Part shown: in pieces, positions 13,092 through 27,810 of the stretch | Numbering within the stretch: the first letter of the stretch is position 1 | How the letters are laid out: every line of letters begins with the position of its first letter | Origin: Nitrospirota bacterium | GTDB taxonomy: Bacteria > Nitrospirota > UBA9217 | Assembly: GCA_963740085.1 (NCBI GenBank) | Contig: CAVUCU010000005.1 | Coordinates: forward strand, 453,731-517,730 | DNA: 64,000 bases | Direction: 5' to 3' | Made by a program: the position numbers and the translations under genes | The notes under the pieces: model-generated | What the model was told of the DNA's origin: nothing | Database searches by the model: none | Seen by the model: only the letters and a program-made list of their open reading frames with translations

Positions 13092-15296
13092 CTACAGCTC
13101 GTCCAGATCATTCATAGTCCCGTCCATATTCTTGCGCACCAGCACCTCGCGCGGTTTGGACCCGTCAGCAGCCCCGACAATTCCATCCTCCTGCATCATT
13201 TCGATCATGCGCGCGGCCCGGTTGTAACCCACGCGGAGCCTGCGCTGGATAAAGGAGGTGGAGGCCTGGCCGTTCAACTGGACCAGCTCCACGGCCCGCT
13301 GATAGAGTTCGTCCCGCTCACTTTCCTCGACCTCCGCGACCTGCGCCTCTACGATCTCTTTTGCCCGTTGCTGAAGCAACTCGTAGTTCGGCTTGCCCTG
13401 CTTCTTGACGAACTCCACCACACGCTTAATCTCCGCCTCGGATACGAAGCAGCCATGGGCCCGGATGATGTGGGACGAACCGGGCGGCTGGAAGAGCATG
13501 TCGCCCATGCCGAGCAGGTTCTCGGCGCCGTTTGCGTCGAGGATGGTGCGAGAGTCGGTTTTGGATGAAACCTGAAAGGATATCCTTGCCGGCAGGTTCG
13601 CCTTGATAAGTCCGGTGATCACGTCCACGCTCGGCCGCTGGGTCGCCACGATCAGGTGGATGCCCGCGGCCCGCGCCATCTGTGCGAGGCGCATGACGGA
13701 ATCCTCGACCTCGCGTGCCACCGTCATCATGAGGTCTGCCAGCTCATCGATGATCACGACAATGTAGGGGAGACGCTCTGCCTCGGGGACGGCCTTGTTA
13801 TAAGAATCGATATTCTTATTCCCCTTCTCGGAGAGTGTTCGGTACCGCCGGTCCATCTCGGCCACGATGGCCCGGAGCGTTTCAGCTGCTTTCTTGGACT
13901 GGGTGACGACCGGCGAAAGCAGGTGAGGGATCCCTTCGTACACCGAGAGCTCGAGCATCTTGGGGTCGATAAGGGCGAGTTTGACCTCGCTCGGCCGTGC
14001 ATTGTACAGGATCGCCAGAATGATCGAGTTGATCGCAACGCTTTTACCCGAGCCGGTTGCGCCTGCCACGAGCATGTGCGGCATTTTGTCGATGCTGCCG
14101 ATCACCGACGCGCCGAAGATGTCCTTGCCCAGGGGGATCTTGAGCTTCGATTTGTTCGACTGGTACTCCGGGGTCTCGAGGATCTGGCGGAAGTAGACCG
14201 TCTCTCGCGTGTTGTTCGGCACTTCGATGCCGACCGCCGCCTTGCCCGGAAGGGGCGCAACGATGCGCACGCTCCCGGCCTTCATGGCGAGCGCCAGGTC
14301 GTCCGACAGGTTCACGATCCTGCTGACCTTCACGCCCGGAGCCGGCTCAAACTCGAACATGGTTACTACGGGACCGGGATAGACCTGCGTGATGCGTCCC
14401 TGGATGTCGAAATCCTGAAGCTTATGCTGCAGCAGCTCGGACTGGGCGAGCATGTCTTCTTTCGAGACCTTCTTCGCGATCGCAGGGACGGGATCGAGCA
14501 GGTCCGGCGACGGGAGCTGGTACGTGTCCCTGCCCTCTTTGCTTCCCATGAATTCAAAGCTTGCCTGAACGGCCTTGGGCGGCTTGTCCGATTTTACGAC
14601 GCGTGGCGGGGACTGCGGCTCGGCCTGCTTCTGGATGTCCATGATCTTCGGCGGTTCCTTGGGCGTCGCCGGCCGCTTTTTTGCCTCACGCGCCTTTTCT
14701 TTGCGGCCGCGGTACACGGTTATCAGAATATCGAGCTGCTCCATCATCCGTCCGTTCAGGGCGCGCAGCCATGCGAGCGCCTTGAGCGGAGAAAAGGGCG
14801 TGAGCAGCATGAGGGCGCTGATCATGGCTGTAAGCGTAATGATATAGGCGCCGATGCCGGAAAATCCGGAAACAAGTAAGCGCGCGATGAAACCGCCAAG
14901 CATACCCCCTGAGGGTACAGTCTCCCCGAACAGCCGTGTCGTTTCGCTTCCGAGTCCAAAGAATGCCCCTGCGGAGACAAAGAATATGATGCCGCCGATT
15001 TTCTTGAGAAGCGGGTGCGTCGCTTCCCCTCCGATAGTGAAGTACACGGCATACCCGAACATGAGAAGCGGGATCACATACGCGGAGAGGCCGAAAAGAT
15101 GGAGCAGCGCGTCGGAGAGATAGGAACCGATGATCCCGATGGTGTTCCTGGTCCCCGCGCCCGTGCCGGAGACGCTGAAGCAGGGGTCGCTCGCGTTGTA
15201 CGAGATCAGGCTGAGCGTGATCAGCAGGCCGATGGCGAAGAGCAGCAAACCGATCATCTCGTTCCAATGCTTATGCTTCGCTGCAGTGACGACCAT
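13092..15296 (-). CDS. ftsK: DNA translocase FtsK
   Basis: N-terminal TM helices, PHMLVAGATGSGKS, IDELADLM, ATQRPSVDVITG, gamma domain LRVGYNRAARMIE. Confidence 0.97.
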   Translation of the reverse strand: MVVTAAKHKHWNEMIGLLLFAIGLLITLSLISYNASDPCFSVSGTGAGTRNTIGIIGSYLSDALLHLFGLSAYVIPLLMFGYAVYFTIGGEATHPLLKKIGGIIFFVSAGAFFGLGSETTRLFGETVPSGGMLGGFIARLLVSGFSGIGAYIITLTAMISALMLLTPFSPLKALAWLRALNGRMMEQLDILITVYRGRKEKAREAKKRPATPKEPPKIMDIQKQAEPQSPPRVVKSDKPPKAVQASFEFMGSKEGRDTYQLPSPDLLDPVPAIAKKVSKEDMLAQSELLQHKLQDFDIQGRITQVYPGPVVTMFEFEPAPGVKVSRIVNLSDDLALAMKAGSVRIVAPLPGKAAVGIEVPNNTRETVYFRQILETPEYQSNKSKLKIPLGKDIFGASVIGSIDKMPHMLVAGATGSGKSVAINSIILAILYNARPSEVKLALIDPKMLELSVYEGIPHLLSPVVTQSKKAAETLRAIVAEMDRRYRTLSEKGNKNIDSYNKAVPEAERLPYIVVIIDELADLMMTVAREVEDSVMRLAQMARAAGIHLIVATQRPSVDVITGLIKANLPARISFQVSSKTDSRTILDANGAENLLGMGDMLFQPPGSSHIIRAHGCFVSEAEIKRVVEFVKKQGKPNYELLQQRAKEIVEAQVAEVEESERDELYQRAVELVQLNGQASTSFIQRRLRVGYNRAARMIEMMQEDGIVGAADGSKPREVLVRKNMDGTMNDLDEL

Positions 15297-15374: not shown

Positions 15375-16181
15375 TTACCGCGCCAGCCACAGCGCCACGA
15401 TTACCGCAGCCAATGCCAGCCGATACCATACAAAGAGATTCAGTGAATGCCGGTTCAGATACTGGAGCAGGAATTTTATGCACAGATAACCGACGATCGC
15501 CGAGAACAGCGTCCCCAGCGCGAAGGGCAGCGCTTCGCCTGCAGCAAGGCGAAGCTTGTGAAGTTTCAGAATAGCCGCTCCTGCAATGACCGGTGTCGAC
15601 AGGAGAAAGGAGAACCGTGCCGCATCTTCCCGCCTGTAGCCGCTCAAAAGCCCGGCAGAGATCGTGATACCCGAGCGCGACACACCCGGGACCAGGGCAA
15701 GGGCCTGGGCGAATCCGATGAAGATTGCATGGCCAAGCGACATGTGCCCGAGACCCGCGGTCTTTGCAGAATATCGGTCCGCTGCCCACATCACGAAACC
15801 GATAACCGCAAGCGCCCCGGCGATCAGGAGAGGGTTCCGAAAGCTCTCTTCCACCATGTGTTCGTATTTAAGGCCCAGGATGCCCGCAGGGATCGTCGCC
15901 AGTGCAATGAACCACACAAGCCTGCCTTCGTTGGTTTTCCACGTGCCGTCCTTGATGCCGGTGAAGAATTTCCCGAACAGATCAAACCAGTCCCGCCAGA
16001 AGAACGCCAGGATCGCGACCAGCGTCCCGGCGTGCAACGCCACGTCGAAATTCAGGCTGTCGATCAACGTGCCTTGCCAACCGAACATCCAGGGGAGCAG
16101 GATCAGGTGGGCCGAGGAGCTGATCGGGAGAAACTCAGTGATCCCCTGGACAATGCCGAGAATGATCGCTTCAAAAATCAC
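15375..16181 (-). CDS. uppP: Undecaprenyl-diphosphate phosphatase
   Basis: GIVQGITEFLPISSSAH and PGVSRSGITIS motifs. Confidence 0.96.
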   Translation of the reverse strand: MIFEAIILGIVQGITEFLPISSSAHLILLPWMFGWQGTLIDSLNFDVALHAGTLVAILAFFWRDWFDLFGKFFTGIKDGTWKTNEGRLVWFIALATIPAGILGLKYEHMVEESFRNPLLIAGALAVIGFVMWAADRYSAKTAGLGHMSLGHAIFIGFAQALALVPGVSRSGITISAGLLSGYRREDAARFSFLLSTPVIAGAAILKLHKLRLAAGEALPFALGTLFSAIVGYLCIKFLLQYLNRHSLNLFVWYRLALAAVIVALWLAR

Positions 16182-17018
16182 TTTTCACCTCTTCAACTGA
16201 ATGATATGGCTTCTTACTATAATCAATGCCGCATCATCTCGGTCCTTGCTGCTCAAGACGATGCCATTATTTCACAAAGCCGTCAGGATTTCAAGATGTT
16301 TTGATTTTGCGAAAAAAAGAGAGCATGCGGGCCGACAGCACCTTCTCCCCTGTGGCTCACGTCGGAGGGTGCTTCAACTCATCTTTTCGATCGAACGGCT
16401 CGACTGAGCTTGTCGAATGCTTACTGCGAAGCACGACCCTTCCTTCTCGGGATGCAATTAAACGGGGAACCCTGAGCAATTTTACGGCACCGCTTCTCCC
16501 TTTCCTAAAAATGATTGATCTATCCGAGTTCCTCGTTCTTCACGCATCAAGCGTCACTTCGACACATAATATTGTTTTATGCTTTGCTTATTGGTCGGAA
16601 TAAACATAAATTAAGAACTTCGCATAATACTAAAGCTTTAATTAATGTGTCCAGATCCTTTTTTAAAAAAAAACTTCGATAGAATTCATTTATCCCTTTA
16701 CAATAAAAGTTACTTAGACTAAAATTATCACAAATAAATTGGTTTCATTTTTGGTTTTTCTCATCTCGCATCCCGCCGAATTTGCTGTCTCGCATTTGAA
16801 AGGTGGTGATCTGTATACCCGTCAAACTTCTTCAGAAGTGCCGTTGTGCAAATCAGAATCGCTACATGCGCTCACAACTTTGCACTTTACTCTTGTACAT
16901 GCCTTATTCGTGATCAAAATCGTCATGTATGTTCATCTGGACACACGGCTGACCAATTTTCTCAACCCCGCTAGTCTCATTAAAGAAATAATACTGAAAT
17001 TTAAAAAAGGAGAATATC

Positions 17019-18071
17019 ATGCAAGACTCATTAATGTACCAGGGTGAGGCAATTAAGAAGCATGCTGGACTAATTCAGGAAAGACCGAGGACGTACGTCG
17101 AAGCGCTTGACGCCAAGATCGAGCGCTATATGGCAAGTCTCAGAGATTTTGAAGTGCGGTGTTCAATGCCGGACGCGAACAAGGAAACGCTTCTCGATGA
17201 AATAGCCGTACTGACCGACTCGATGCTTCAGGCTTGTGCGCAGTTTGAACAAGACGTGAACGATCCACTGCCCGTCAAGCAAGCTCAGGTCTACTTCCGC
17301 GAAAAAACACATCCTATTCTGTCCAAAAGCTATTTCGTCAATCGCGCCAGAACTTGGCCGCAGGGTCATCAGGGTGATTTCATGATGTTGGAACAGATTT
17401 ACAAAAACTTTCCGATGTCGGAAGGCGTTGGATCGTATCTGGACAAATATGTACTTTCCACTCCTCTCAGCATTGGCGTGCAGGAACGAATAGTAAAGAT
17501 GCGAGACTTGTTAAAAGAAGAACTGATCAACCGAAGCAATCTGAAAGTACTGGATGTTGCCTCCGGTTCCTGCCGGGAGGTTTTCGAATTGGCGCCGGAG
17601 ATCAAGGCATCGGGAGCCAAATTCACTTGTGTTGATCTGGATTCTGCTGCGCTGGATTTCGCCCTTGATCGTTTTGCTTATGCCGGGCTCACTGAAAAGC
17701 ATACAGAATTGGTCCAATACAATGCTCTCAGAATGTTCGACCTTGAGACGGCGAAGACGGAATTCGGTATGCAAGACATTATCTACAGCATCGGATTTTT
17801 CGACTATCTCCCCGATGATTTCCTCGTGAAGTTACTGAGCTCTTTCTATCTGATGCTGAATCCCGGAGGAAAACTGATTGCATCCTTTAAAGACGCAGAA
17901 CGTTATCCTTCGCAACATTGCCACTGGTTTGTTGATTGGGATGGGTTCCTGCAGCGCACCGAGAAAGACTTCTTGAAAGTGTTCCAGGACGCCAATATCC
18001 CAGACAGCGCAATTTCAATGTCCCGGGTCGATTCAGGATCCATAGTTTTCTATTCGATCACGAAGCGGTAA
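17019..18071 (+). CDS. Class I SAM-dependent methyltransferase, PhcB-like
   Basis: SAM motif VLDVASGSCRE, DIIYSIGFFDYL, LNPGGKL; RARTWPQGHQGDFMMLEQIY resembles the P-x-G-Y-x-G-D segment I recall in PhcB-type enzymes; AAAGGAG RBS. Confidence 0.75.
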   Translation: MQDSLMYQGEAIKKHAGLIQERPRTYVEALDAKIERYMASLRDFEVRCSMPDANKETLLDEIAVLTDSMLQACAQFEQDVNDPLPVKQAQVYFREKTHPILSKSYFVNRARTWPQGHQGDFMMLEQIYKNFPMSEGVGSYLDKYVLSTPLSIGVQERIVKMRDLLKEELINRSNLKVLDVASGSCREVFELAPEIKASGAKFTCVDLDSAALDFALDRFAYAGLTEKHTELVQYNALRMFDLETAKTEFGMQDIIYSIGFFDYLPDDFLVKLLSSFYLMLNPGGKLIASFKDAERYPSQHCHWFVDWDGFLQRTEKDFLKVFQDANIPDSAISMSRVDSGSIVFYSITKR

Positions 18072-18297
18072 TAAATACCGTACGGAACATATCCATAATA
18101 ATACATTTATCTTAATGGGATGATTACTGAAGGGAGTCGGGAAAAAACAGTAAAGGGTTTCTTCTTTCTTCTCTCAGGGGTTTAGCCTTGTAAAGGAATC
18201 GGGAAAGTGCTATAAATAGACTTCCGAATAAGGATATAACGGTTGTGCCCTTCAAGGCTGAAGACAACAAAACGGTCCCCTCAAGCGGGAGAAGAGC

Positions 18298-19050
18298 CTG
18301 AATAAGAATTCACTTTCCAATAAGATCGCGATTGTAACGGGAGGAACAAGGGGAATCGGCCGCGCCATCGTGCTCGCTGTTTGTCAAGAAGGTGCGGATT
18401 GCGCGTTCACGTATTCCAGCAATCGCGATGCAGCAGAATCACTTTCCGATGAAGTGCAACGTTTTGGCAGAAGAGCGTTGCCCGTTCAACTTGACGTGAG
18501 GGATTTTGAAGGAGCTAAAACGCTCGTCGATACAGTAAAAGCGGAATTCGGGCAACTCGATATTCTTGTTAACAATGCAGGAATTACAAGGGACAGGTCT
18601 CTCATGATGATGGGTCAGGAGGACTGGTCCGATGTCATAGATACAAACCTTACCGGTGTTTTCAATACTACCCGCGCGTGCATCATCTCGTTTCTGAAGC
18701 AAAAAAGTGGGAACATCGTAAGTATTTCGTCAGTAAGCGGAATTCACCCTCTCGCTGGCCAGGTCAATTACGCAGCGGCAAAGGCCGGTGTGATCGGTTT
18801 TACCAAATCGCTGGCCAAGGAAGTAGCGCCCTATAATATCAGGGTAAATGCGGTTGCTCCGGGGTTCATCAGTACCGAGATGACCGCGGAACTCAGCGAA
18901 AAAGCCAGAGATAAATTTTTAAAGATGATACCTCTCCAGAGATTCGGCACCCCCGATGAAGTGGCGAAGGTCGTACTATTTTTGCTCAGTGACGTTTCGC
19001 AATACATCACGGGACAGACAATACAGCTTGATGGCGGCTTGGGGATATAG
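18298..19050 (+). CDS. fabG: 3-oxoacyl-ACP reductase FabG
   Basis: Rossmann motif IVTGGTRGIG lies upstream of the listed start; NNAGITRD, YAAAK, VNAVAPG. Candidate start is CTG 18298. Confidence 0.9.
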   Translation: MNKNSLSNKIAIVTGGTRGIGRAIVLAVCQEGADCAFTYSSNRDAAESLSDEVQRFGRRALPVQLDVRDFEGAKTLVDTVKAEFGQLDILVNNAGITRDRSLMMMGQEDWSDVIDTNLTGVFNTTRACIISFLKQKSGNIVSISSVSGIHPLAGQVNYAAAKAGVIGFTKSLAKEVAPYNIRVNAVAPGFISTEMTAELSEKARDKFLKMIPLQRFGTPDEVAKVVLFLLSDVSQYITGQTIQLDGGLGI

Positions 19051-19058
19051 ATCACGCT

Positions 19059-20297
19059 ATGAGAGAAGGAATTGTAATTACGGGCATCGGTGTTCTCTCA
19101 CCTATCGGCATTGGCAGAGAGGCATACTGGGAAGGATTATTTGAGGGGAAAACGGGGTTTCGACCGGTAACCCTTTTTGATACGTCTCCGTTTCATGTCC
19201 ATGTTGCGGGAGAGATCGCGGATTTTGATGCCCTTTCGTTCCTAGGCAAAAAAGGGCTTCGGGATCTTGACAGAAGCACAAGGCTGATCTGTTCGGCAGC
19301 TAAACTCGCTATCGAAGACTGCAAGATTGAGATAACCGAGGATAATACCCACTCGATGGGGGTCTCCATCGGCACGACATTCGGGAGTCTCCATAGCATT
19401 TCACAATTTGACCGATCAGGCCTCATTGATGGACCGAAGTTCGTCAATCCCTCGCACTTTCCGAATACGGTCATCAATTCGCCGGCTAGCCAAGTATCAA
19501 TAAAATTCAAGATCAAAGGCTTCAACACTACTATATCTACAGGCTTCTGCGCCAGTCTCGATGCTGTCTCCTATGCCGCTGATTTCATCCGATTGAACCG
19601 GGCAGATATAGTGTTAGCGGGCGGAGTGGAAGAATTATGCGAAGAGACTTTTATGGGTTTTCATAACCTGGGATGCTTATCCGGGACGGACGGCTCGGAA
19701 CCCCGTTGCTGCCCCTTTGACGCGCGGAGGAACGGTACTATTCTCTCGGAAGGTGCAGCGGTACTAGTCCTTGAAGATGAAGAGCACGCATTGAACAGAA
19801 ATGCTGCGATTCTTGCGCATGTTCTCGGATACGCCAATGCCTTTGATCCCATGGCTGATGGTAACTTTCATCATGCAGGTCAGGGATTGAAAAATGCCAT
19901 CGTGCTTGCATTGCAGGATGCTGCGCTCAACCGCGAGGACATTGACTATGTCTGCGCCTGCGCCAATTCATCAAAAGAGCTCGACCGGATGGAAACGAAT
20001 GTAATCAAGGATGTTTTCGGGACACGCGCACTTTCCATGCCTGTCAGCGCGATAAAATCCATGGTAGGAGAATCATTTTCCGCGTCGGCGCCCTATCCCT
20101 GACCGCAGCGGTGGGAGCGCTCAGGAAGGGCTTTATCCCGGGCACGGTAAATTACCATGAAAAAGACCCGTGTGCGATCTTGACTATGTCCCCAATATTG
20201 CACGACAGGAGCAGATACAGAGCGTGCTCGTAACGTCGGCAGATCCCTTGAAAACACAGCTATTGTGCTGGGAAGATGGGTAACGTTTAATTCATAA
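19059..20297 (+). CDS. Ketosynthase-like protein lacking catalytic residues (chain-length-factor-like), frameshifted near the 3' end
   Basis: VITGIGVLSPIG N-terminus; catalytic Cys/His/His positions read STGFCAS, YVCACANS, KSMVGES; frames shift near 20090, 20170 and 20250. Confidence 0.75.
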
Positions 20298-20367
20298 GCG
20301 CGATATAAGGCACATATATCTACTCCCTGCTCTTTGCCTCATGCTATATGCAGAAATCCGGTGACCA

Positions 20368-20810
20368 ATGCAACTTAACTTTGAAGAGATAAAGAAACTT
20401 ATTCCTCAGCGATTCCCCTTTATCATGCTCGATAAAGTGATGGAATCGGAACCGGGTAAACGCGTGGTCGCTGTAAAGAATGTGTCCGGGAAATGACATG
20501 ATTTTTCTCGGCCATTTTCCCGAAAAGGCGATTATGCCCGGTGCGCTCATTATCGAGGCAATGGCGCAGGCATCCATCATTCTCTTCGCTACAAGCGAAA
20601 AAAAGAGAGAGCTCCGGCAAAAAGCCCTTTTATTATTTCGGTTCGGTCAAAGCGCGATTCCTTCATCCTGCGGTACCGGGTGACCAATTAAGAATTAGTG
20701 TTGAGAACGTCAAAACCCTTCCGACCGGTGCATACATAACGGGAGAGGTTTTTGTCGAAAATAAGAAAGTGGCAGAAGCAGACCTGGTTTTCAGCGTGAA
20801 AAATGAATAA
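20368..20810 (+). CDS. fabZ: 3-hydroxyacyl-ACP dehydratase FabZ (two frameshifts)
   Basis: Manual join: [30 protein letters not shown] / [22 protein letters not shown] / [13 protein letters not shown]; shifts near 20490 and 20605. Confidence 0.85.
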
Positions 20811-22010
20811 GAGAGTCGTCATAACGGGGCTGGGTGTTATATCTTCCATAGGTATTGGCTGGAAGGAATTCTGGGACAACTTGCTTAAGGGAAAGTCCGG
20901 CATCAGTCCCGTTACTGCCTTTGATACGACAAATCAGTTCACACATAACGGCGGTGAAGTAAAGAATTTCAGACCAGAGGCGTTCATCGAGCAGGACAAG
21001 CTCCGCACACTTAGCAGGGCATCACACATGGGGCTTGCTGCCGCTAAGCTGGCAATGGTCGACTCTAAATTATCGTCGGGCCATCTCGAATTTGAAAAGT
21101 GGCACCTGCATCGGAATAACATCGGGACCATTCAGGTCGTCGAAAACATTGATGATTATCGTGATGTTTAGAAAAGATGAATTAAAAAACAATTTAATTA
21201 CGCAACTTCCTGTTAATACTGTATCTGCATGTATCGCTAAGGAACTACATCTCGACGGGCCAAACTTCCTTTTTTCTACCGCGTGTGCAGCAGGGAATTA
21301 TGCTATAGGTTACGGCTTTGATTTAATTCGTTTAAACAAGGCAGATATAATTCTTGCGGGCGCATCTGATCCTTTTTCGAGAATATCATTCACAGGTTTC
21401 AATCAGTTTTCTGCCGTTGCCCCTGTAAAATGTCAACCCTTTGATAAGAATAGAAAAGGGATGATAGTGGCCGAAGGAGCTGGCGCACTTATTTTAGAAT
21501 CTCTTGAGAATGCAATGAAACGGCATGCTCCTATCTATGCTGAAATTTTGGGTTACGGGCTCAGTTGCGATGCTTTTCATATGACGACTTCTTCCGTTGC
21601 TGGTATAGCAGCTTGTATGAAGACCGCAATGCAAACAGCTAGTATCACGATTGAAGAAGTCGATTATATTAGTGCCCACGGAACGGGTACACCAACAAAT
21701 GATAAAAATGAATGTGCCGCCATAGAAACATCTTCGGCCGCGTTACCAAAAAGTCCCTGCGAGTGCTATCAAATCCATGCTCGGCCATACAATGGGGGCG
21801 GCATCAACTATTGAAGCAATCGCATGTGCACTTACCGTCCAAAATGATATAATGCCACCAACTATCAATTATGAAACGCCTGACCCGGAATGTGATATTG
21901 ATTGTGTTCCTAATCAATCACGAAAACATACCGTAACAATAGCATTGAATAATTCCTACGCATTTGGCGGCAACAATGCCTGTCTGGTTTTAAAAAAGCA
22001 CACCAGTTAA
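20803..22010 (+). CDS. fabF: Beta-ketoacyl-ACP synthase (FabF-like, triad intact), frameshifted
   Basis: Three ORF pieces give [43 protein letters not shown]. Confidence 0.85.
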
Positions 22011-22032
22011 GTAAGGAGATAAAGAGAAAACA

Positions 22033-22330
22033 ATGGCTGAAAAATGTGGAAAAAGCAATCGTTACGATTATTGCTGAGGTCTCTGGATTTGAAGAAAATG
22101 AGATAACGCCAGAGAAGAACTTTTTTAAAGATTTGGAAGTGGATTCTATTAAAGCTATAGAAATTACAGTTGCAATTGAAAAAAAATTAAAGATATCGGT
22201 AAGAGATGAAGATGTTCCTAAAATTGCGACTGTGAAAGAAGCCGTGGAACTAGTACATAATTTATTAAATCAAAATCGACAATCAAATCTATCAGAGACG
22301 TTGATTAAAATGGTTATGATGCGGCAATAA
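22033..22330 (+). CDS. Acyl carrier protein
   Basis: DLEVDSIKAIEITVAIEK with the phosphopantetheine Ser; ATG 22033 is out of frame across an A-run; 3' end uncertain. Confidence 0.8.
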
Positions 22331-23692
22331 GGGTATGGTATGGTTGTTCCCTGCGAAACCTTGTAAAAATATTCTTATTGTCGAACAACATACAACCGGG
22401 AGGTTATTGTACGTCTTTTAAGAGAAGAGAATTTATTTTTGATGCGGCAGCTCATTCATTTGGGAGCTATAGGATGGGAGGAAATATTATAAAGATATTA
22501 GCGTGAATTAGGTGTCGACCAACTAATTGGATAAGATGATATTAATCCTTTGATAATGTAGTTCCTGCTGAGTTTCTAATATAATTTTGTAATGATATAC
22601 AAAAAACTATTAATAATTTAATAAATATTTTTCCAGAAGAAAAGCAGAACATTGAGCGGTTATATAATTTTATATTTTGACAAAGAATTAATCAACTTGA
22701 AAGAGTGAAATTGAGAAAAAAAACATTTGCGGATTTTTTGGGAAAGTTTTTTAAAGATATACGTTTAATCAATACCCTTGCTGTACCCGTTTTTGGATAT
22801 GGAGGTTTACCCGCCATCGCTTTTGCAAGCATTTACTGGGGTAAAAATATTTAACGAATATATAATCGATGGGGGTTATTATCCTGAAGATAGCATGCAA
22901 AGTATACCGAATGCTTTGGATAAAATTGTTAGAGCAACATGAAGGAACACTTATATATAAAAGGGTTGTTGAAAAAATCATCAGTAATGATGGCAAAGCT
23001 TCGGGGGTAATATAGATAATAATCGTGCTATTGTTTCTAATCTGGTCTCTTGCGATATTACTCGACCTAAGACTGTTTATTGAGGATAAAATAATCGACG
23101 GGCCCTCGAATGATAAGCTTACAATATGATGCCTTCAATATCCACTTTTACTCTTTACATGGGAATTGCCAGGCCATTTAAGGGGCTTCCCCAAGAGGGA
23201 ACAAATACATGGTATCTTCCTTATTATGATCTAGATAAAATGTATACTTTTGTTGATAAGAGCGATTTTGACAATGTGGGTGGCTTCATGCTCAGAGTAT
23301 CTCCTGACAAAAAAACAATTTTGGCTTTTTCTCCTGCCCCATATAATACAAAATCGTTCTGGAGACAACACAAAAAAGAAATCACCCAGCTTTTCTTAAA
23401 GAGAATCGAAAAGCATATCCCAGGTCTACAAGAACATATAGCTTATCTCGATTCCGCAACTCCTTATACCCACTACAGATATACTCTTAATCTCAAAGGT
23501 GCTAATTATGGTTGGGCTGCTATAAAGTCGCAACTGTTCGATCCAGATTTTTGTCATAAATCTTTCGTTGATGGGCTATATGTGACTGGCCACTGGACCG
23601 CTCAGACTCATGGAATACCTGGAGTTGCATATTTGGGTTATAATACTGCAAAACTTATCCTTAAGCGTGAAAAAAATGACGTTTTACATTAG
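22300..23692 (+). pseudogene. Phytoene-desaturase/retinol-saturase-family FAD oxidoreductase, heavily frameshifted (or assembly errors)
   Basis: Fragments ILIVEQH..GGYCTSFKR..FIFDAAAHSFG, GGYYP, and C-terminus DSATPYTHYRYTLNLKGANYGW..GLYVTGHWT..GIPGV. 5' boundary approximate. Confidence 0.7.
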
Positions 23693-23722
23693 GGTTGTTT
23701 TTTTCGATGAAGAGGCTAGAAT

Positions 23723-25884
23723 ATGATTATGTCTAAAGAACAGTATATTAACGATAAAATTAATAAATTACCCCAATACTGGTCTAATTTGGCGGCTTTT
23801 TTTGGTGGTTTCTTTTTTGCGGGCTTATCACTTTTGGACTACATTGCTACTCCTGAAAACTTTTCCAATTTTTTAAAATATAGATTGATTGGAGTTTTTT
23901 TATTTGCGGTATATTCTTTATAATCGAATAAAGGTTGGCAAAAGGTATCAATTATCAATAATTTATTTCGGCGTTATTGTTTCGGCATGTATGATCGAGT
24001 ACATGATTATGCACTTCGGCGAACATGCTTCGCCGTATTATGCAGGTCTATTTATTCTTATTATGGTCATCGTCGGCTTTGTTCCAATTCCCTTATATCA
24101 TTCCATATATCTTTCGATGATTACTTTTTTAATTTATCTAGTACCGATATTAATTTACGATGAATCGCTTAGTTTTAAAGCATTTTAGTTCCGCTATTTT
24201 TTTTAGTTTCCACTTTTGCGATAGCCAACGTGTGGAGATATCTTAGCCAAAAAAGTCTCGTAAACGAGCTCTCCCTTCAATACGACCTTGAACAGCAAAA
24301 GAAACAGCTCGAAAGTTATTCATACCAGCTTCAGATGCGGTCGAGGAACGGACCAAGGAACTCCATGAATCTGATCAATGGCACCGGTCACTTTTTGAAA
24401 ACGCGACGGACGGGATTATTGTCATGGACCGTCACGGCATCATCGTGAACGCTAATGACAGGGCCTGCGAAATGCACGGCTTTACGCGAGAGGCGCTTGT
24501 CGGCGCCCATATAAAACTGTTGGCGGCCGACGGTGACAAGAACAACATGTTGGAGAGAATGCGCCGGATACTGGACGGTGAATCTCTTGTGTTTGAGGCC
24601 GCAAACAACAAAAAGGACGGCTCAACCGTCAATGTCGAAGTCAGTTCCAAGGCAATCAACATTGGGAACGAGCTTTTTGTACAGTCATTCTATCGTGATA
24701 TCACCGAGAAGAAGAAATTTCAGGAACACCTTATGCAGTCGCAGAAGATGGAATCCGTCGGAGTCCTCGCCGGTGGGATCGCACACGACTTTAATAATAT
24801 ATTGACCGCCATCCTTGGCCACACAGACCTCATTCGCCGGTTTGCCGTGCTGGACGAAAAGGCGACGCGCAGTCTTAACGTTATCGAAGATGCGTCGCGA
24901 AGGGCAGGAAGAATGATCTCAAAACTTCTTGGCTTTGCGCGAAAAAGCAAGTATGAGCGAACACCGATCAACCTGAACGATGTGGTGTATGAGACCATAA
25001 AACTGCTCGAGCAGGTCATCGACAAGAGCATAAACCTGAGCGTAGAACTTGACAACCGGCTTCCCCTGATCCAGGGCGACGTGAATCAGATGGAGCAGGT
25101 CATCATGAATTTCATCGTCAATGCCCGTGATGCCATGCCGAAAACGGGCGGACGCATCGTCATCCACACGCAATCCCGGACGGTCGTGAAGAGCATGCCG
25201 GATGTCCCTCCCTATGTCCCTCCCGGGGAATATGTCCAGATCAGCGTCTCTGACACCGGCGCCGGGATTCCCGAGGATATCGTGAACAAGATCTTCGAGC
25301 CTTTCTTTACCACGAAGGAGCAGGGAAAAGGAACAGGGCTCGGCCTGTCCATGGTCTACGGAGCCGTCAAAGACCATGAGGGATATCTCTCTGTTCAGAG
25401 CACGCTTGGCGTCGGGAGCGTTTTTTCCGTTTTTCTGCCCGCAGCAGCCCCTGCATCCGTTGCCGGGGCAAAGGGAGCTTTAAAGCAGGCCAGTGGAAAG
25501 GAAACCCTCCTTATTGTTGATGACGAACAGGATGTTCTTGACATCATGCGGGACGCACTGGAGAGCAGTGGGTACAAGGTGTTTGCAACCAGCGATTCTA
25601 CGGTAGCGATGGACCTCTACAGAAGGATTTTTCACGAAGTGGCGCTTGTCATATCCGACATCGTCATGCCCGGAATTGACGGAAAAGAGCTCATCCGGCA
25701 GATAAAAGCGATCAATCCCGATGTTAAAGTTCTCGCGGTTTCCGGGTATACGAGATATGTCGCGGAAAAGGACGAGATCAAAGAAATTGACGGTTTTCTT
25801 CAGAAACCCTTTGAATCGTATTATCTTCTTTCCGTGGTACGACGGATACTCGATACAAAGTCAAAAAAATTCTTACCTGTCTGA
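23723..25884 (+). CDS. Membrane-bound hybrid histidine kinase (multi-TM sensor, PAS, HisKA, HATPase, REC), frameshifted in the 5' part
   Basis: Hydrophobic ORF pieces 23723-24448 lead into PAS, GGIAHDFNN, NARDAM, GKGTGLGL and a C-terminal receiver domain. Confidence 0.85.
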
Positions 25885-26298
25885 GCAAACATCCTTCACA
25901 ACAGCGCATTATTGTATAAATCCGACTGCCCACCTGAAAGCGGGGCACCAAGCCAGCTTCGTCATGAGCTTCCCAAGCTGACTCGAGCCGCTGGACTGAG
26001 CAGCCGCAGCATCGCGCTTTATGCATAGTCTCGCACGCTAAAACCCGACATCTTGTTAATTCAGTTCATCCTGTCATTCAATCAAAGGCCCGATCATTTC
26101 TACTCATTTTGCGACAAGAAATTTTAATCCCTAGCAAACCGATGGAACATCCAGGCATTACACCCGGGCGGGAGCCATTAAATTTGTTATAATGTAACTA
26201 CTCAGGTGAATAGACTGAGGGTAGGAGTTTTTGTGTAATTCAAGTAGATACCCTTCAGCTTTCAGCCTGAATACCTACTCCGTAAGAGGGAGACATTT

Positions 26299-27810
26299 AT
26301 GGTGTCGCTGAAAAAGAGGGGGCATACTATCCTGATGATAGAGGACGACCCCGAGAGGCGCGAGCTTGTGCGCGCGGCGTTTACAAACGCAATCGGTCCT
26401 TCGCGCCTCGAATTTGTCTCCACGCCCGAGGCCGGCTTCGCGATCATGAGGCGCGAGACCGTTGATGTCCTGTTCGTCAACGAGGTCCAGAGCGGGCTTA
26501 ACGCGTCTGAATTCGTGCGCGATCTTGCCGCTACCAACCAGCAGGCCCCGGTCATCATGATGTCGCCCGATGCCGACGAGGCGGCAATCCTCCATGCGCT
26601 CCGCGGCGGCGCATCAGACTGCGTCAGCATGGACCGGAAAACCATTGCCGGCTACCCGGCAATTGCCCTGCGAGCCATCGCTCGCTCAGAGACCTTCCAG
26701 GCATATGCAGAGCATGCACTGGCGATCATCAAAAATCAGAAGCAGTGGATGTCGATCATCGACGCCATTACGGACTACATCTACGTTCTCGACAACGCGC
26801 AGAGACTTGTCAAAGTGAACAACTCCTTCGCAATGGCGATCGGCCTGCACCCGCGGGACATCGTCGGGAAGCAGCTTCAGGAGGTGTTCCATCAGGACAT
26901 TCCGAACGAGGCGGTGCTCGACGAAGTCCGCCGGGACGGCATGCCGCGGACATATGAGAAAAAGATCAATGATGATATCCATCAGGTCAGCATTTTCCCG
27001 CTGCAGGAGAACGGTCAATTCTTCACTATCCATGTGTTAAAGAACGTCACCGAGGTGCGAAGACTGAAAGACCAGCTGTACCATGCCGACAAGCTTGCGT
27101 CCATCGGCCTTCTGGTCTCCGGTGTTGCACACGAGATCAACAACCCGTTGACCGGGACGATCGCTTATACCGAACTCCTCGCCATGAAGGTGACCGATGA
27201 GGAAACCAGGGCCGAGCTGAAGAAGATCCTGGACAGCGCCGAGCGGTGCAAGAAGATCGTGGATAATCTCATGACCTTTTCCCGACAGCGAACTCCATCG
27301 AAGAGCCTTGAATCCGTCAACGACGTCATTGATCGTGCCATTGCCCTCAGAATCTACTGGCTCAAGGCCAATTCTATCGAGATCGTCAGGGACTACGATC
27401 CTGCGACAACGGTTTTTGTGGACGCACAGCAGATCCAGCAGGTGGTCCTGAATCTGCTGCTCAATGCTGAGCAGGCGATCCGTGACGCCGGACAGACGCA
27501 TGGCAAGATCGTATTCAGGTCTCGGGCCGATAAGCAGCGCCGCAGGGTCATCGTAACCGTGAGCGATAACGGCCCCGGCATATCACCGCAGATCGCAGCG
27601 AAGATCTTTGACCCCTTTTACTCGACGAAACCCGTGGGAGAAGGAACAGGGCTCGGCCTCTCCATTTCCCACGGAATCATCACCGAGCACGGCGGCACCA
27701 TCCGGTTCGAAAAAAATGAAGACGGCGGCAGTGTCTTCACGTTTGAACTGCCCACGGGTGCGGACATGCCAGCGCTGGCGCCAGCGATTCGGAAAAGCGA
27801 GAACACTTGA
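26299..27810 (+). CDS. Histidine kinase with atypical N-terminal receiver and PAS domain
   Basis: REC-like N-terminus (Asn at the usual phospho-Asp position, VLFVNE), PAS, GVAHEINNP, NAEQA, GEGTGLGL. Confidence 0.88.
   Translation: MVSLKKRGHTILMIEDDPERRELVRAAFTNAIGPSRLEFVSTPEAGFAIMRRETVDVLFVNEVQSGLNASEFVRDLAATNQQAPVIMMSPDADEAAILHALRGGASDCVSMDRKTIAGYPAIALRAIARSETFQAYAEHALAIIKNQKQWMSIIDAITDYIYVLDNAQRLVKVNNSFAMAIGLHPRDIVGKQLQEVFHQDIPNEAVLDEVRRDGMPRTYEKKINDDIHQVSIFPLQENGQFFTIHVLKNVTEVRRLKDQLYHADKLASIGLLVSGVAHEINNPLTGTIAYTELLAMKVTDEETRAELKKILDSAERCKKIVDNLMTFSRQRTPSKSLESVNDVIDRAIALRIYWLKANSIEIVRDYDPATTVFVDAQQIQQVVLNLLLNAEQAIRDAGQTHGKIVFRSRADKQRRRVIVTVSDNGPGISPQIAAKIFDPFYSTKPVGEGTGLGLSISHGIITEHGGTIRFEKNEDGGSVFTFELPTGADMPALAPAIRKSENT

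Follow-up and report, generated by a model that had tools for sequence, protein, structure and literature searches.

In Ralstonia, PhcB, which is thought to draw on housekeeping acyl chains, produces methyl 3-hydroxymyristate or methyl 3-hydroxypalmitate, and the product is sensed by the membrane kinase PhcS. The alpha-hydroxyketone systems CqsA/CqsS and LqsA/LqsS use synthases that are PLP-dependent acyl-CoA transferases, and the Gram-positive pherotype loci, i.e., staphylococcal agrBDC and Bacillus comQXP, work with peptide signals. Cluster I of Kuenenia (KustE3603-3608) comprises, in the available text of a preprint that also covers structures 9S5H and 9S5I (bioRxiv 10.64898/2026.05.19.726425), genes for amxACP, amxFabZ, amxFabFmut, amxFabF2, a phytoene-dehydrogenase (PDH) homologue and a B12 radical SAM protein.

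We analyzed a 64,000-nucleotide stretch of DNA (the window) from an uncultured anaerobic Nitrospirota bacterium, where a single co-oriented operon occupies positions 17019-25884 of the + strand. In our best reading, this locus pairs the synthase of a lipid-derived small molecule with its receptor in one operon, with a chemistry, including methyl-ester formation, that we infer. As in phcBSRQ of Ralstonia, a SAM methyltransferase gene comes first, and a membrane histidine kinase is encoded in the same operon.

Organization of the operon

The operon encodes, in order, the SAM methyltransferase (MT), FabG, a dead ketosynthase (KS1), FabZ, an active ketosynthase (KS2), an ACP, a CrtI-like flavoenzyme and a hybrid histidine kinase. 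An earlier note on this DNA had described such a co-oriented run of eight genes, and the ORF list, Pfam and NCBIfam confirm all eight gene types on the + strand where it had placed them. The AT-rich core reported there is also present (GC 0.32-0.38 at 22000-24000 vs ~0.55 in the flanks), as is the pair of inactive and active ketosynthases, with KS1 lacking the catalytic triad and KS2 having Cys/His/His. Upstream lies an AT-rich leader and promoter region (16182..17018, + strand, GC 0.41-0.44) with no convincing ORF, no Rfam match and no sigma-54 enrichment. Its part at 16625-17018 aligns with congeners at ~77% nucleotide identity and contains a putative sigma-70-like site at 16697-16725, a consensus match of 10/12 positions.

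Six of the eight operon genes are interrupted in the window, which, together with the low GC, would suit a decaying, horizontally acquired pseudogene island that is currently functionless in its host. We regard this as highly improbable, since short-read contigs 95-99% alike (four runs, one study) carry indels at every break they cover, and applying these indels by script restored KS1 (408 aa, 88.7% identical to its homologue in locus L009 across the breaks at 20086-20250), FabZ (146 aa, with single-base breaks at 20486 and 20605) and the 3′ junction of KS2 (break near 21724-21738). The contigs leave uncovered the breaks within 21010-21411, 22417-23019 and 23422-24627; these include the KS2 break near 21090-21160, which no contig spans. 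The flavoenzyme is split over two frames (tblastn with three orthologues, covering residues 17-471), and the N-terminal part of the kinase has three frame changes within 23723-24340. The MT and five flanking genes are uninterrupted, and many other genomes hold intact orthologous operons. Based on the restored KS1, FabZ and KS2 junction, the frameshifts look like assembly errors, and in nature the cluster is most probably unbroken.

Synthase genes and their kinship with anammox Cluster I

FabG (about 18286..19050, + strand) matches Pfam adh_short_C2 at 2e-64 and TIGR01830 at 1.8e-85, the latter under its cut-off for want of the N-terminus; the reading frame runs open from 18262, without ATG, GTG or TTG ahead of 18370, and FabG aligns with all 241 residues of the FabG from locus L011. 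[quoted passage not shown] FabZ, the 3-hydroxyacyl-ACP dehydratase, is recognized by Pfam as a FabA domain in two fragments (~20368..20810, + strand), and the best PDB matches of a FabZ orthologue are the anammox FabZ entries 8ayd and 7qv0_A (1.8e-37). KS2 (20803..22010, + strand), an active-type ketosynthase by Pfam, matches best 9s5h_B, i.e., amxFabF2 (E 1.7e-147, 494 bits), followed by Iga11 (6kxd, 347 bits), and both KS1 and KS2 match the anammox proteins far better than any other solved ketosynthase. The dedicated ACP (22046..22330, + strand) has a PP-binding match at 6e-14, and the top four PDB matches of an orthologue include 9s5i_E, 7qv0_D and 7auf_A, all ACP chains of anammox entries.

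These matches identify the KS pair, ACP and FabZ, at the level of sequence, as close relatives of the partly characterized anammox Cluster I KS/CLF-ACP-FabZ-PDH set. The earlier note knew of no characterized system of this kind; for the synthase, Cluster I now supplies a precedent. Both have a dead triad in the upstream KS paralogue, a dedicated ACP, FabZ and a PDH homologue, and loci L019 and L041 also share with Cluster I a B12 radical SAM gene, an accessory that they carry between ACP and PDH. The window departs from Cluster I in having no radical SAM gene and in possessing FabG, a PF12147-type methyltransferase and a sensor kinase; KS1 has Phe in place of the catalytic Cys, and not the Val or Thr given for anammox bacteria in the available text, and the hosts are not known ladderane makers. 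A CMAS-like methyltransferase is a further accessory, found by scan in L021, L030, L053 and L043, with unscanned inserts of the same size in L045 and L056. The available preprint text calls Cluster I unique to ladderane producers (bioRxiv 10.64898/2026.05.19.726425); since the Nitrospirota loci carry its core, the core is not unique to them. Genome-mining papers report, in the portions available, ladderane-type clusters outside anammox bacteria, and we found no mention in these portions of this locus or of Nitrospirota carriers.

The methyltransferase and its association with the kinase

The MT (17019..18071, + strand) is intact (350 aa) and combines an N-terminal helical domain with a class I SAM fold; its Pfam match to PF12147 is borderline, and the orthologue in L011 passes (26.5 bits, cut-off 21). 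JGI gives the product name phcB, which we take to be equivalent to KEGG phcB, to 10 among the 120 close homologues listed and also to P0152 and P0281; the putative label "PhcB-like" derives only from these automatic names and the borderline PF12147 matches. An AF2 model of the MT (pLDDT 88.9) returned in Foldseek only generic class I methyltransferases (TM ~0.47) among the matches listed. In a plasmid-borne PKS, a PF12147-type methyltransferase with 25% identity over 93% of the window MT forms the C-terminal end and immediately follows an ACP in the same polypeptide, a fusion that connects this kind of MT with acyl chains bound to a carrier.

The same gene order recurs across Thermodesulfovibrionales. 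Of 80 related loci, 36 have the arrangement MT-(FabG)-KS1-(FabZ)-KS2-ACP-(FAD)-kinase and five have the MT directly followed by the kinase (gap <200 nt), and these counts argue that the arrangement is not due to chance; a further 36 are cut too short to judge. Three loci are long enough yet have no detected kinase, two of them with insertions and one (L066) truly kinase-less, with synthase and MT, ample flank, and a phospholipase-D-type gene adjoining the cluster. In an order-level tally of 63 genomes the MT is present in 43, and the CLF-type KS1 in 28, all of them MT-positive (28/43 vs 0/20 MT-negative genomes); the sensor is present in 42/43 MT-positive vs 8/20 MT-negative genomes. The earlier note presupposed that MT, synthase and kinase co-occur elsewhere, and these numbers confirm that they do. 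An order-level search identified 13 loci where the MT directly adjoins the kinase (gap <200 nt) with no synthase between, as in phcB-phcS, the likeness being one of arrangement and automatic names. Most genomes with such a minimal pair have no KS1 orthologue anywhere, and four hold both the full cluster and a minimal pair. The synthase is always inserted between MT and kinase and occurs without the MT in 0/28 genomes; the MT-kinase pair is the invariant core, with the synthase as an insert.

A hypervariable cassette of flavoenzyme and sensor

The CrtI/phytoene-desaturase-like FAD oxidoreductase, i.e., the PDH homologue (~22273..23692, + strand), was located by tblastn and by an NCBIfam crtI_fam match on its C-terminal ORF; an orthologue has a Pfam Amino_oxidase domain and matches CrtI 4dgk at 5e-27. 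The kinase (23723..25884, + strand; Pfam domains on 24424-25884) has the layout six-helix membrane sensor (MASE8-like)-PAS-HisKA-HATPase-receiver. Matches to MASE8 (PF20968; cut-off 26.2) reach 29.2 bits in homologue P0314 and 26.0 in L017, and the AF2 model of the L011 orthologue has six N-terminal helices (sensor pLDDT 87-93). The sensor is wholly membrane-embedded, with short loops between its six helices, and sensors of this kind serve lipophilic ligands. By description, CqsS and LqsS resemble it, being six-membrane-helix kinases without a periplasmic domain adjoining the synthase of a lipid-like autoinducer; unlike in those systems, the enzymes here are a methyltransferase and KS/CLF.

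A low-GC segment at about 22276..24232 (+ strand), spanning the flavoenzyme and the sensor half of the kinase, has no blastn similarity (E<=1e-10) to four congeners except edge overhangs and an 82-base patch (L084), whereas its flanks are 70-86% identical to them in nucleotides. At the protein level, the flavoenzyme is 35-45% identical to those of congeners (and absent in L017) and the sensor fragment HKtm2 36-41%, vs 79-90% for MT, FabG, KS1 and kinase core in three of the four; the broken MT of L020 is 66% identical. The cassette is nearest to that of L052 (flavoenzyme and sensor fragments 58%, 51% and 52% identical), a locus with flanks distant from the window (MT 54%, kinase core 48%). Across 22 loci, which are related and non-independent, pairwise identities of flavoenzyme and sensor correlate (rho 0.56, reached by 0/2000 label permutations), with a partial r of 0.65 after regression on KS1, KS2 and MT, vs 0.16 for MT and sensor. 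Flavoenzyme and sensor half thus appear to form an exchangeable cassette, swapped together between close relatives. This co-variation argues that the kinase senses the pathway product; it would also be expected of a kinase that tracks a membrane lipid produced by the cluster.

Similarly, in agrBDC and comQXP the hypervariable segment consists of the signal-determining enzyme and the sensor half only, between conserved flanks, with alleles at odds with the flank phylogeny. Unlike those loci, to which it has no sequence relationship, the present one would use a lipid and not a peptide, and its specificity groups are predicted from sequence.

Downstream genes and comparison with phcBSRQ

A second kinase (26299..27810, + strand; receiver-PAS-HisKA-HATPase by Pfam) follows the operon kinase in the window and in congeners L009 and L010/L017, but is not next to it in most other loci examined; this neighbour, specific to the genus, may serve as a relay partner. 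Its unusual receiver-kinase layout is also that of PhcR, a further likeness to phcBSRQ within the window's genus. In most non-congener loci examined the first gene 3′ of the kinase is on the opposite strand, no conserved output regulator is found near the kinase in the loci examined, and none of the RNA runs holds the stretch. From the interpretation in the earlier note, the co-occurrence of MT, synthase and kinase stands, while two parts need correction, i.e., a synthase without precedent and an output through the downstream genes (second kinase, NtrC-type regulator, ParA-like protein, GGDEF-EAL protein), which are conserved only within the genus. The locus also differs from phcBSRQ in the MASE8-like, PAS and receiver domains of its kinase (PhcS has its phospho-His at residue 230), in the dedicated KS/CLF-ACP synthase and flavoenzyme inserted between MT and kinase, in showing no PhcA-type regulator nearby, and in phylum and lifestyle.

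Alternative explanations

A specialized membrane-lipid pathway with a feedback sensor is a possible, though doubtful, explanation: a mini-FAS would make an unusual acyl chain (polyunsaturated, branched or cyclized), tailored by the MT, and the kinase would monitor lipid or membrane state and regulate the pathway. The nearest relatives of the KS pair, ACP and FabZ belong to anammox Cluster I, which is believed to produce part of a membrane lipid, and a similar proposal exists for anammox bacteria and Desulfotalea; in the available text, Rattray et al. connect the polyunsaturated hydrocarbons of D. psychrophila with clusters of a similar kind. The phospholipase-D-type gene beside the kinase-less L066 cluster points the same way, and a membrane-embedded sensor could read bulk lipid. 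However, minimal MT-kinase pairs in KS1-less genomes are hard to explain on this basis, the operon has no conserved acyltransferase or glycerolipid gene, and wholesale replacement of flavoenzyme and sensor among congeners is unusual for homeostasis and typical of recognition systems.

An unlikely reading is a small secondary-metabolite cluster, i.e., a highly reducing type II PKS for a polyene or an antimicrobial methyl ester, with a neighbouring kinase that only adjusts expression in answer to an unrelated cue. Such a cue leaves unexplained the co-variation of sensor half and flavoenzyme, as well as the MT keeping its kinase where the synthase is absent, and genes for resistance, export or immunity are not conserved, even though KS/CLF with ketoreductase, dehydratase and ACP and without an enoyl reductase is the polyene-forming type II layout, and antiSMASH-type mining would presumably tag such loci "ladderane". 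Ishigamide Iga11/Iga12 and aryl-polyene PKSs share the KS/CLF heterodimer, discrete ACP, ketoreductase and dehydratase and the lack of an enoyl reductase, and Iga11 is the second-best PDB match of KS2; yet this match is much weaker than that to the anammox pair (347 vs 494 bits), the aryl starter, amide-forming, LolA/MMPL export and glycosyl/acyl-transfer genes are missing here, and the operon includes a sensor kinase. Very little probability attaches to the MT acting on a protein, adapting the kinase or one of its partners in the way of CheR, with the synthase genes as unrelated passengers. MT-kinase adjacency without a synthase, weak CheR matches in distant family members (PF01739, E 0.0016 in P0131; also listed for P0279) and PilZ-fused forms within the family, suggestive of a signalling role, are in its favour; the window MT has no PilZ domain. 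Against this, Foldseek ranks 1-50, with some entries collapsed, list small-molecule and lipid methyltransferases and no CheR, the synthase accompanies the MT in 28/28 genomes and always lies between MT and kinase, and the PKS mentioned above joins an MT of this type to an ACP.

Proposed mechanism and implications

We give about an even chance to a Phc-like system in which a lipid methyl ester is the signal and which, together with its receptor, diversifies as pherotypes do. In its favour we count the conserved order, the MT-kinase core, the co-occurrence, the cassette, the sensor type, the phcB name, the ACP fusion and the variable tailoring genes; against it, the generic Foldseek matches, a kinase architecture unlike PhcS, the lack of a nearby conserved output regulator, the kinase-less L066, the sensor in 8/20 MT-negative genomes and the absence of a thioesterase or exporter gene from the operon.

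In such a signal system, the KS2+KS1 heterodimer, served by a dedicated ACP, FabG and FabZ, with an enoyl reductase missing from the operon, would build a short or medium acyl chain, probably unsaturated, for which the C6-C8 preference of the anammox homologues may be a guide. The CrtI-like flavoenzyme would tailor this chain, e.g., by desaturation, and the chain would presumably be released from the ACP, although no thioesterase is encoded in the operon. The PF12147-type MT may then methylate the acid, giving a product that diffuses more readily, a methyl ester if PhcB is a guide, which would partition into membranes and reach the six-helix MASE8-like domain of the kinase at the operon end; the product would be the kinase ligand and would act between cells. 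Joint replacement of flavoenzyme and sensor half would create new signal and receptor specificities, in a pherotype-like manner. The lineage-variable tailoring genes are consistent with the product diversification expected of signals, and the joint exchange of an enzyme and a sensing half is the pattern expected of a private chemical signal and its receptor.

Gene content of the operon and correction of frame breaks

Our analysis identified eight co-oriented genes located between a minus-strand gene encoding an undecaprenyl-diphosphatase (BacA; 15375-16181), which forms the upstream boundary and is separated from the operon by a 0.8 kb AT-rich leader, and a plus-strand gene encoding a second kinase (26299-27810), which forms the downstream boundary. 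All eight genes are encoded on the plus strand: an intact class I SAM methyltransferase of 350 aa (MT; 17019-18071), FabG (~18286-19050, without a normal start), a first FabF homologue (KS1; 19059 to ~20282), FabZ (~20368-20810), a second FabF homologue (KS2; 20803-22010), an ACP (22046-22330), a CrtI/amine-oxidase-type flavoenzyme (~22273-23692) and a hybrid histidine kinase (HK; 23723-25884). The GC content is 0.32-0.38 at 22000-24000, versus ~0.55 in the flanks. The gene inventory in the earlier note, including its “inactive KS”, was correct, since all eight gene types were found in place, with KS1 lacking the catalytic triad and KS2 retaining Cys/His/His. The same note proposed that the genes downstream could be the output of the system, and here we observe that the second kinase, NtrC-type regulator, ParA-like and GGDEF-EAL genes are kept next to the operon only within the genus.

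The ~400 nt leader immediately upstream of MT (16625-17018) is ~77% conserved with loci of the same genus (the congeners), with no Rfam match and no clear open reading frame, and a search of 15900-26400 against Rfam gave no match at E<=0.1. Sigma-54 promoter motifs were not enriched (23 matches versus 29 expected), with none upstream of the operon; scans for sigma-70 promoters and terminators returned consensus matches only, and this stretch was present in none of the RNA datasets listed.

Six of the eight operon genes are interrupted in the window sequence. There are three frame changes in KS1 (within 20086-20250), two breaks each in FabZ and KS2, at least one in the flavoenzyme gene and three in the N-terminal part of HK, and FabG counts as the sixth owing to its missing normal start. 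Short contigs, 95-99% alike and derived from four public soil-metagenome runs of one study, carry indels at each covered break (20086, 20166, 20247/20250, 20277/20279, 20486, 20605 and 21724-21738). Applying these indels by script gave a single 408-aa KS1, 88.7% identical to its homologue in the related locus L009, as well as a 146-aa FabZ and a joined 3′ part of KS2, with correction limited to the covered breaks, i.e., those outside 21010-21411, 22417-23019 and 23422-24627. The corrective indels in near-identical contigs, together with the intact flanking genes (FtsK, BacA, the second kinase, the NtrC-type regulator and the GGDEF-EAL protein), led us to conclude on sequence evidence that assembly errors account for the covered breaks or that, at the least, near-identical strains possess intact alleles.

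Kinship of the synthase with anammox Cluster I

Using orthologues from the related locus L011, we searched all solved PDB structures for matches to each synthase component. The best match to KS2 was 9s5h_B (E 1.7e-147, 494 bits; next Iga11, 6kxd, 347 bits), and the best match to KS1 was another chain of the same structure, 9s5h_C (E 3.3e-117, 395 bits; next FabF, 255 bits). The top four matches to the ACP included 9s5i_E, 7qv0_D and 7auf_A, FabZ matched 8ayd and 7qv0_A (1.8e-37), and the flavoenzyme matched CrtI (4dgk, 5e-27). No citation of 9S5H was found in print, and its chains fit the proteins described in a preprint on the anammox “ladderane” gene set (bioRxiv 10.64898/2026.05.19.726425). 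[quoted passage not shown]

The operon contains several of these features, i.e., an active FabF2 with an upstream FabF paralogue that lacks the Cys-His-His triad, for which a heterodimer is predicted, and, in the same operon, a dedicated ACP, a FabZ and a phytoene-dehydrogenase homologue. Examination of the triad positions, read from our alignments and from section 12 of the preprint, demonstrated that in KS1 a Phe aligns with the Val standing in for the catalytic Cys of the inactive anammox FabF, and that both His residues are also replaced, while Cys/His/His are kept in KS2. Based on these matches, we class the synthase as a relative of anammox Cluster I, a kinship that the earlier note did not recognize. 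Unlike Cluster I, the window contains no gene for a cobalamin-dependent radical SAM enzyme; a scan of inter-gene gaps of >450 nt across 80 related loci identified a B12-binding radical SAM gene between the ACP and flavoenzyme genes, as in Cluster I, in L019 (14263-15567) and L041 (9813-11123).

Inserts scanned in four other relatives encode a CMAS-like class I methyltransferase inside the operon, between FabZ and KS2 (L021:13609-14466; L030:10828-11697; L053:6662-7543) or before the kinase (L043:15837-16691), and L045 and L056 have inserts of the same size.

The methyltransferase family

The predicted structure of MT (AF2 model, pLDDT 88.9) combines a class I fold with a helical domain at the N-terminus, and both Foldseek and sequence searches against the PDB returned only generic class I small-molecule and lipid methyltransferases. 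The family is large, with 5149 representatives at E<=1e-3 and 499 at E<=1e-30, and overlaps Pfam PF12147 (26.5 bits for the L011 orthologue), a family for which our search of control genomes found a match in E. coli only. No NCBIfam model matched MT, and homologues in the ESM Atlas bear generic names. Among the 120 close homologues listed, 10 carry the JGI product name [quoted passage not shown], which we take to be the KEGG name of phcB. This product name and the PF12147 match are indirect signs that MT may be a homologue of PhcB. A homologue search starting from one protein so named (P0152) returned 12 proteins, none from Ralstonia; Ralstonia names were likewise absent from the clusters of 20 distant MT representatives, and tblastn of MT against plasmids gave matches only in Rhizobium, Enterobacter, Pantoea, Deinococcus and Aureimonas.

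Many relatives of MT (426-483 aa) contain an N-terminal PilZ domain, some with an additional zinc ribbon, for example those at L077:198-1649, L093:2305-3747 and L096:9395-10828 and the proteins P0131, P0121 and P0170; the MT in the window is without PilZ. The presence of this domain suggests that the fused proteins may be under c-di-GMP control, and a literature search for PilZ together with PhcB found nothing relevant.

A domain of the MT type, of the PF12147 kind and 25% identical to the window MT, also forms the C-terminus of a KS-ACP-MT polyketide synthase (L111:4856-7993), directly after the ACP, on a conjugative IncFII plasmid of Enterobacter ludwigii (NZ_CP134637.1). This fusion links the MT type with acyl chains bound to a carrier. 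Next to the plasmid gene are additional KS and SDR genes and a Tn3 transposase. Another MT-family match (E 3e-34; contig C266 of genome G068, 14324-15280) falls within a 2521-aa open frame, and may be a further copy embedded in a polyketide synthase.

The hybrid kinase and its sensor

Orthologues of HK are ~720 aa in length. The model of the L011 orthologue (pLDDT 81.5 overall, 87-93 in the sensor) contains six N-terminal helices (2-42, 44-68, 74-98, 107-120, 125-146 and 152-227) joined by very short loops, with which hydropathy agrees, followed by PAS, HisKA, HATPase and receiver domains. Searches with MASE8 (PF20968, gathering cut-off 26.2 bits) gave scores of 29.2 for the homologue P0314, 26.0 for L017, 23.8 for P0289 and 14.3 for P0290, with no match in L075, in L093 or in the broken HK fragments of the window itself. 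Literature using the term, as far as available (a domain survey), gave no function for MASE8; a further use of the string, in a study on ambulance-demand forecasting, is evidently unrelated. The architecture of HK, a MASE8-like sensor with PAS and receiver domains, is unlike that of the Ralstonia methyl-ester quorum-sensing kinase PhcS, in which the phosphorylated His is residue 230 (PMC11960443).

The same genome encodes, outside the window, a second, orphan MASE8-like sensor (1228192-1228782 of contig C1) that shares 36% identity with the L011 sensor (E 2e-30) and has no MT match beside it. Many relatives contain two to four copies of MASE8-like sensors.

Distribution and gene order among relatives

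We found 103 relatives of MT in public records, almost all of them in metagenome-assembled genomes of Nitrospirota/Thermodesulfovibrionales, and kept 80 loci. The order MT-(FabG)-KS1-(FabZ)-KS2-ACP-(FAD)-HK is present in 36 of these 80, with FabG, FabZ and the flavoenzyme each absent from some lineages, and in 5 of 80 MT is followed directly by HK. A further 25 contain synthase genes and end less than 8 kb downstream, and 11 end within 1.5 kb of MT. Only 3 of the 80 extend at least 8 kb downstream with no kinase detected: L047, where toxin-antitoxin and IS110 inserts are present and a kinase starts at the end of the locus; L050, which also carries an insert; and L066, which is truly without a kinase and where a convergent phospholipase-D-type gene follows the flavoenzyme gene.

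Our survey of 63 species-representative genomes of the order identified MT in 43. An orthologue of KS1 (E<=1e-110) was present in 28 genomes, all of them MT-positive (28 of 28) and none among the 20 that are MT-negative, and the sensor domain (E<=1e-15) in 50, i.e., in 42 of 43 MT-positive versus 8 of 20 MT-negative genomes; these overlaps were counted by reading the search result rows, and the genomes are relatives and not independent samples. In 13 loci from this search, HK starts less than 200 nt after MT in the same orientation with no synthase between them, which is the gene arrangement expected of Phc-type (PhcB/PhcS) methyl-ester quorum sensing; in the window, the synthase genes separate the two. 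The full cluster and a minimal MT-HK pair occur together in four genomes (G060, G064, G068 and G078). The co-occurrence counts and the 13 synthase-less pairs demonstrate that the MT-HK pair is the conserved core, with the synthase an insert between them. The same figures bear out the earlier note in its expectation that MT, synthase and kinase would co-occur in other genomes.

In several relatives, operon genes are separated by inserted toxin-antitoxin-type genes (MNT/HepT, PIN), DUF559 endonuclease-like genes and an IS110 transposase (L047:15719-17984; L069:6153-8054; L054:14267-14659; L052:12645-13010; L058:12416-12775). One contig (L035, genome G041) is titled “Betaproteobacteria bacterium”, and its genome was placed in the same Nitrospirota order as the relatives; a mistake in binning or naming probably explains the title.

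A variable region spanning flavoenzyme and kinase sensor half

Alignment of the window with its four congeners showed 70-86% DNA identity over 16000-22275 and 24233-25894, with no alignment between ~22276 and ~24232 other than overhangs at the edges and a single patch of 82 bases in L084. This low-GC segment is a cassette that encodes the flavoenzyme and the sensor half of HK. MT, FabG, KS1 and the HK core are 79-90% identical in three of the four congeners (L020, with its own MT broken, has 66% in MT), the C-terminal part of the flavoenzyme is 35-45% identical, the enzyme being absent in L017, and a fragment of the sensor (HKtm2) is 36-41% identical. The closest relative of the window cassette is instead found in L052 (58%, 51% and 52%), which has distant flanks (54% in MT, 48% in the HK core). 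For L022/L027, the closest by flank (85% in MT and KS1), the cassette is only 57% and 55% identical. Across 22 loci, pairwise identities of the flavoenzyme and the sensor co-varied with a rho of 0.56, reached by 0 of 2000 permutations, and a partial r of 0.65 after regression on KS1, KS2 and MT, versus a sensor-MT correlation of 0.16, reached by 138 of 2000 permutations; since the loci are related, these figures serve as the description of a pattern rather than as probabilities.

The specificity (“pherotype”) regions of the agr and comQXP loci offer an analogy. A pattern of the pherotype type is present here, i.e., a hypervariable enzyme and sensor half with conserved flanks and co-variation, and by analogy the cassette resembles those regions, with a role in specificity predicted from sequence.

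Upstream of the cassette, KS2 shares only ~60% identity with three of the four congeners over its first two-thirds (20803-21727), and 41% with L084, versus 84-89% over its last 75 residues. The 5′ part of KS2 is a second mosaic patch.

Proposed mechanism and alternative explanations

In the mechanism we propose, KS2/KS1 and the ACP, FabG and FabZ would build a short or medium acyl chain, probably unsaturated, since no enoyl reductase is encoded. The flavoenzyme would then tailor this chain, as might the CMAS-like methyltransferase or the B12 radical SAM enzyme in other lineages, MT would methylate the released acid, and the membrane sensor of HK would bind the product. Where a lineage has the MT-HK pair alone, MT would act on housekeeping acyl chains, which PhcB is likewise assumed to use. 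The sequence data establish the gene content, synteny and co-occurrence, the anammox relationship, and the cassette and its co-variation; we infer all of the chemical steps, release from the ACP (the operon encodes no thioesterase), ligand binding and action between cells.

As a tentative reading, it is possible that the Thermodesulfovibrionales use lipid methyl-ester quorum sensing, with specificity reset by swaps of the flavoenzyme and sensor cassette (lipid “pherotypes”) and with a Cluster I mini-FAS as synthase, such that the ancestral product of Cluster I was a short modified acyl signal or precursor and not a ladderane, and Cluster I alone is not the determinant of ladderane synthesis. 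The main rival of the proposed mechanism is a membrane-lipid pathway that serves the cell itself and includes a feedback sensor. Such a pathway is consistent with the anammox link and with the co-variation of flavoenzyme and sensor, but it does not fit the MT-HK pairs that have no synthase or the replacement of alleles between congeners, and we consider it rather doubtful. Less likely than this pathway are the three other explanations: a secondary-metabolite cluster beside an unrelated regulator is unlikely, and it is very improbable that MT is a protein methyltransferase or, to the same slight degree, that the operon is a decaying island.

Implications for the Thermodesulfovibrionia and for Cluster I

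Our literature searches found nothing on a ketosynthase/methyltransferase/kinase operon in Thermodesulfovibrionia, on PhcB or ladderane clusters in Nitrospirota, or on K19620, and no described system of cell-cell signalling in Thermodesulfovibrionia. The parts of the operon are of known kinds; what is new is their combination and the cassette of enzyme and sensor. The operon is a concrete signalling candidate for the Thermodesulfovibrionia, for which a synthase, a receptor and a determinant of specificity can all be predicted.

The preprint terms Cluster I unique to ladderane producers and a putative ladderane cluster (bioRxiv 10.64898/2026.05.19.726425), and an earlier study had already described similar clusters in some Deltaproteobacteria, calling them “rare but not unique” (Rattray et al. 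2009; PMC2649909). Our survey demonstrates that the Cluster I core is not unique to anammox bacteria, as it is present in another phylum, in close to half of the species genomes surveyed from one order (28 of 63), where it always occurs with MT and almost always with a sensor kinase. Since the core is widespread outside anammox bacteria and tied to these two genes, its spread bears on the question of what Cluster I really makes, and non-anammox relatives are now available for its study.
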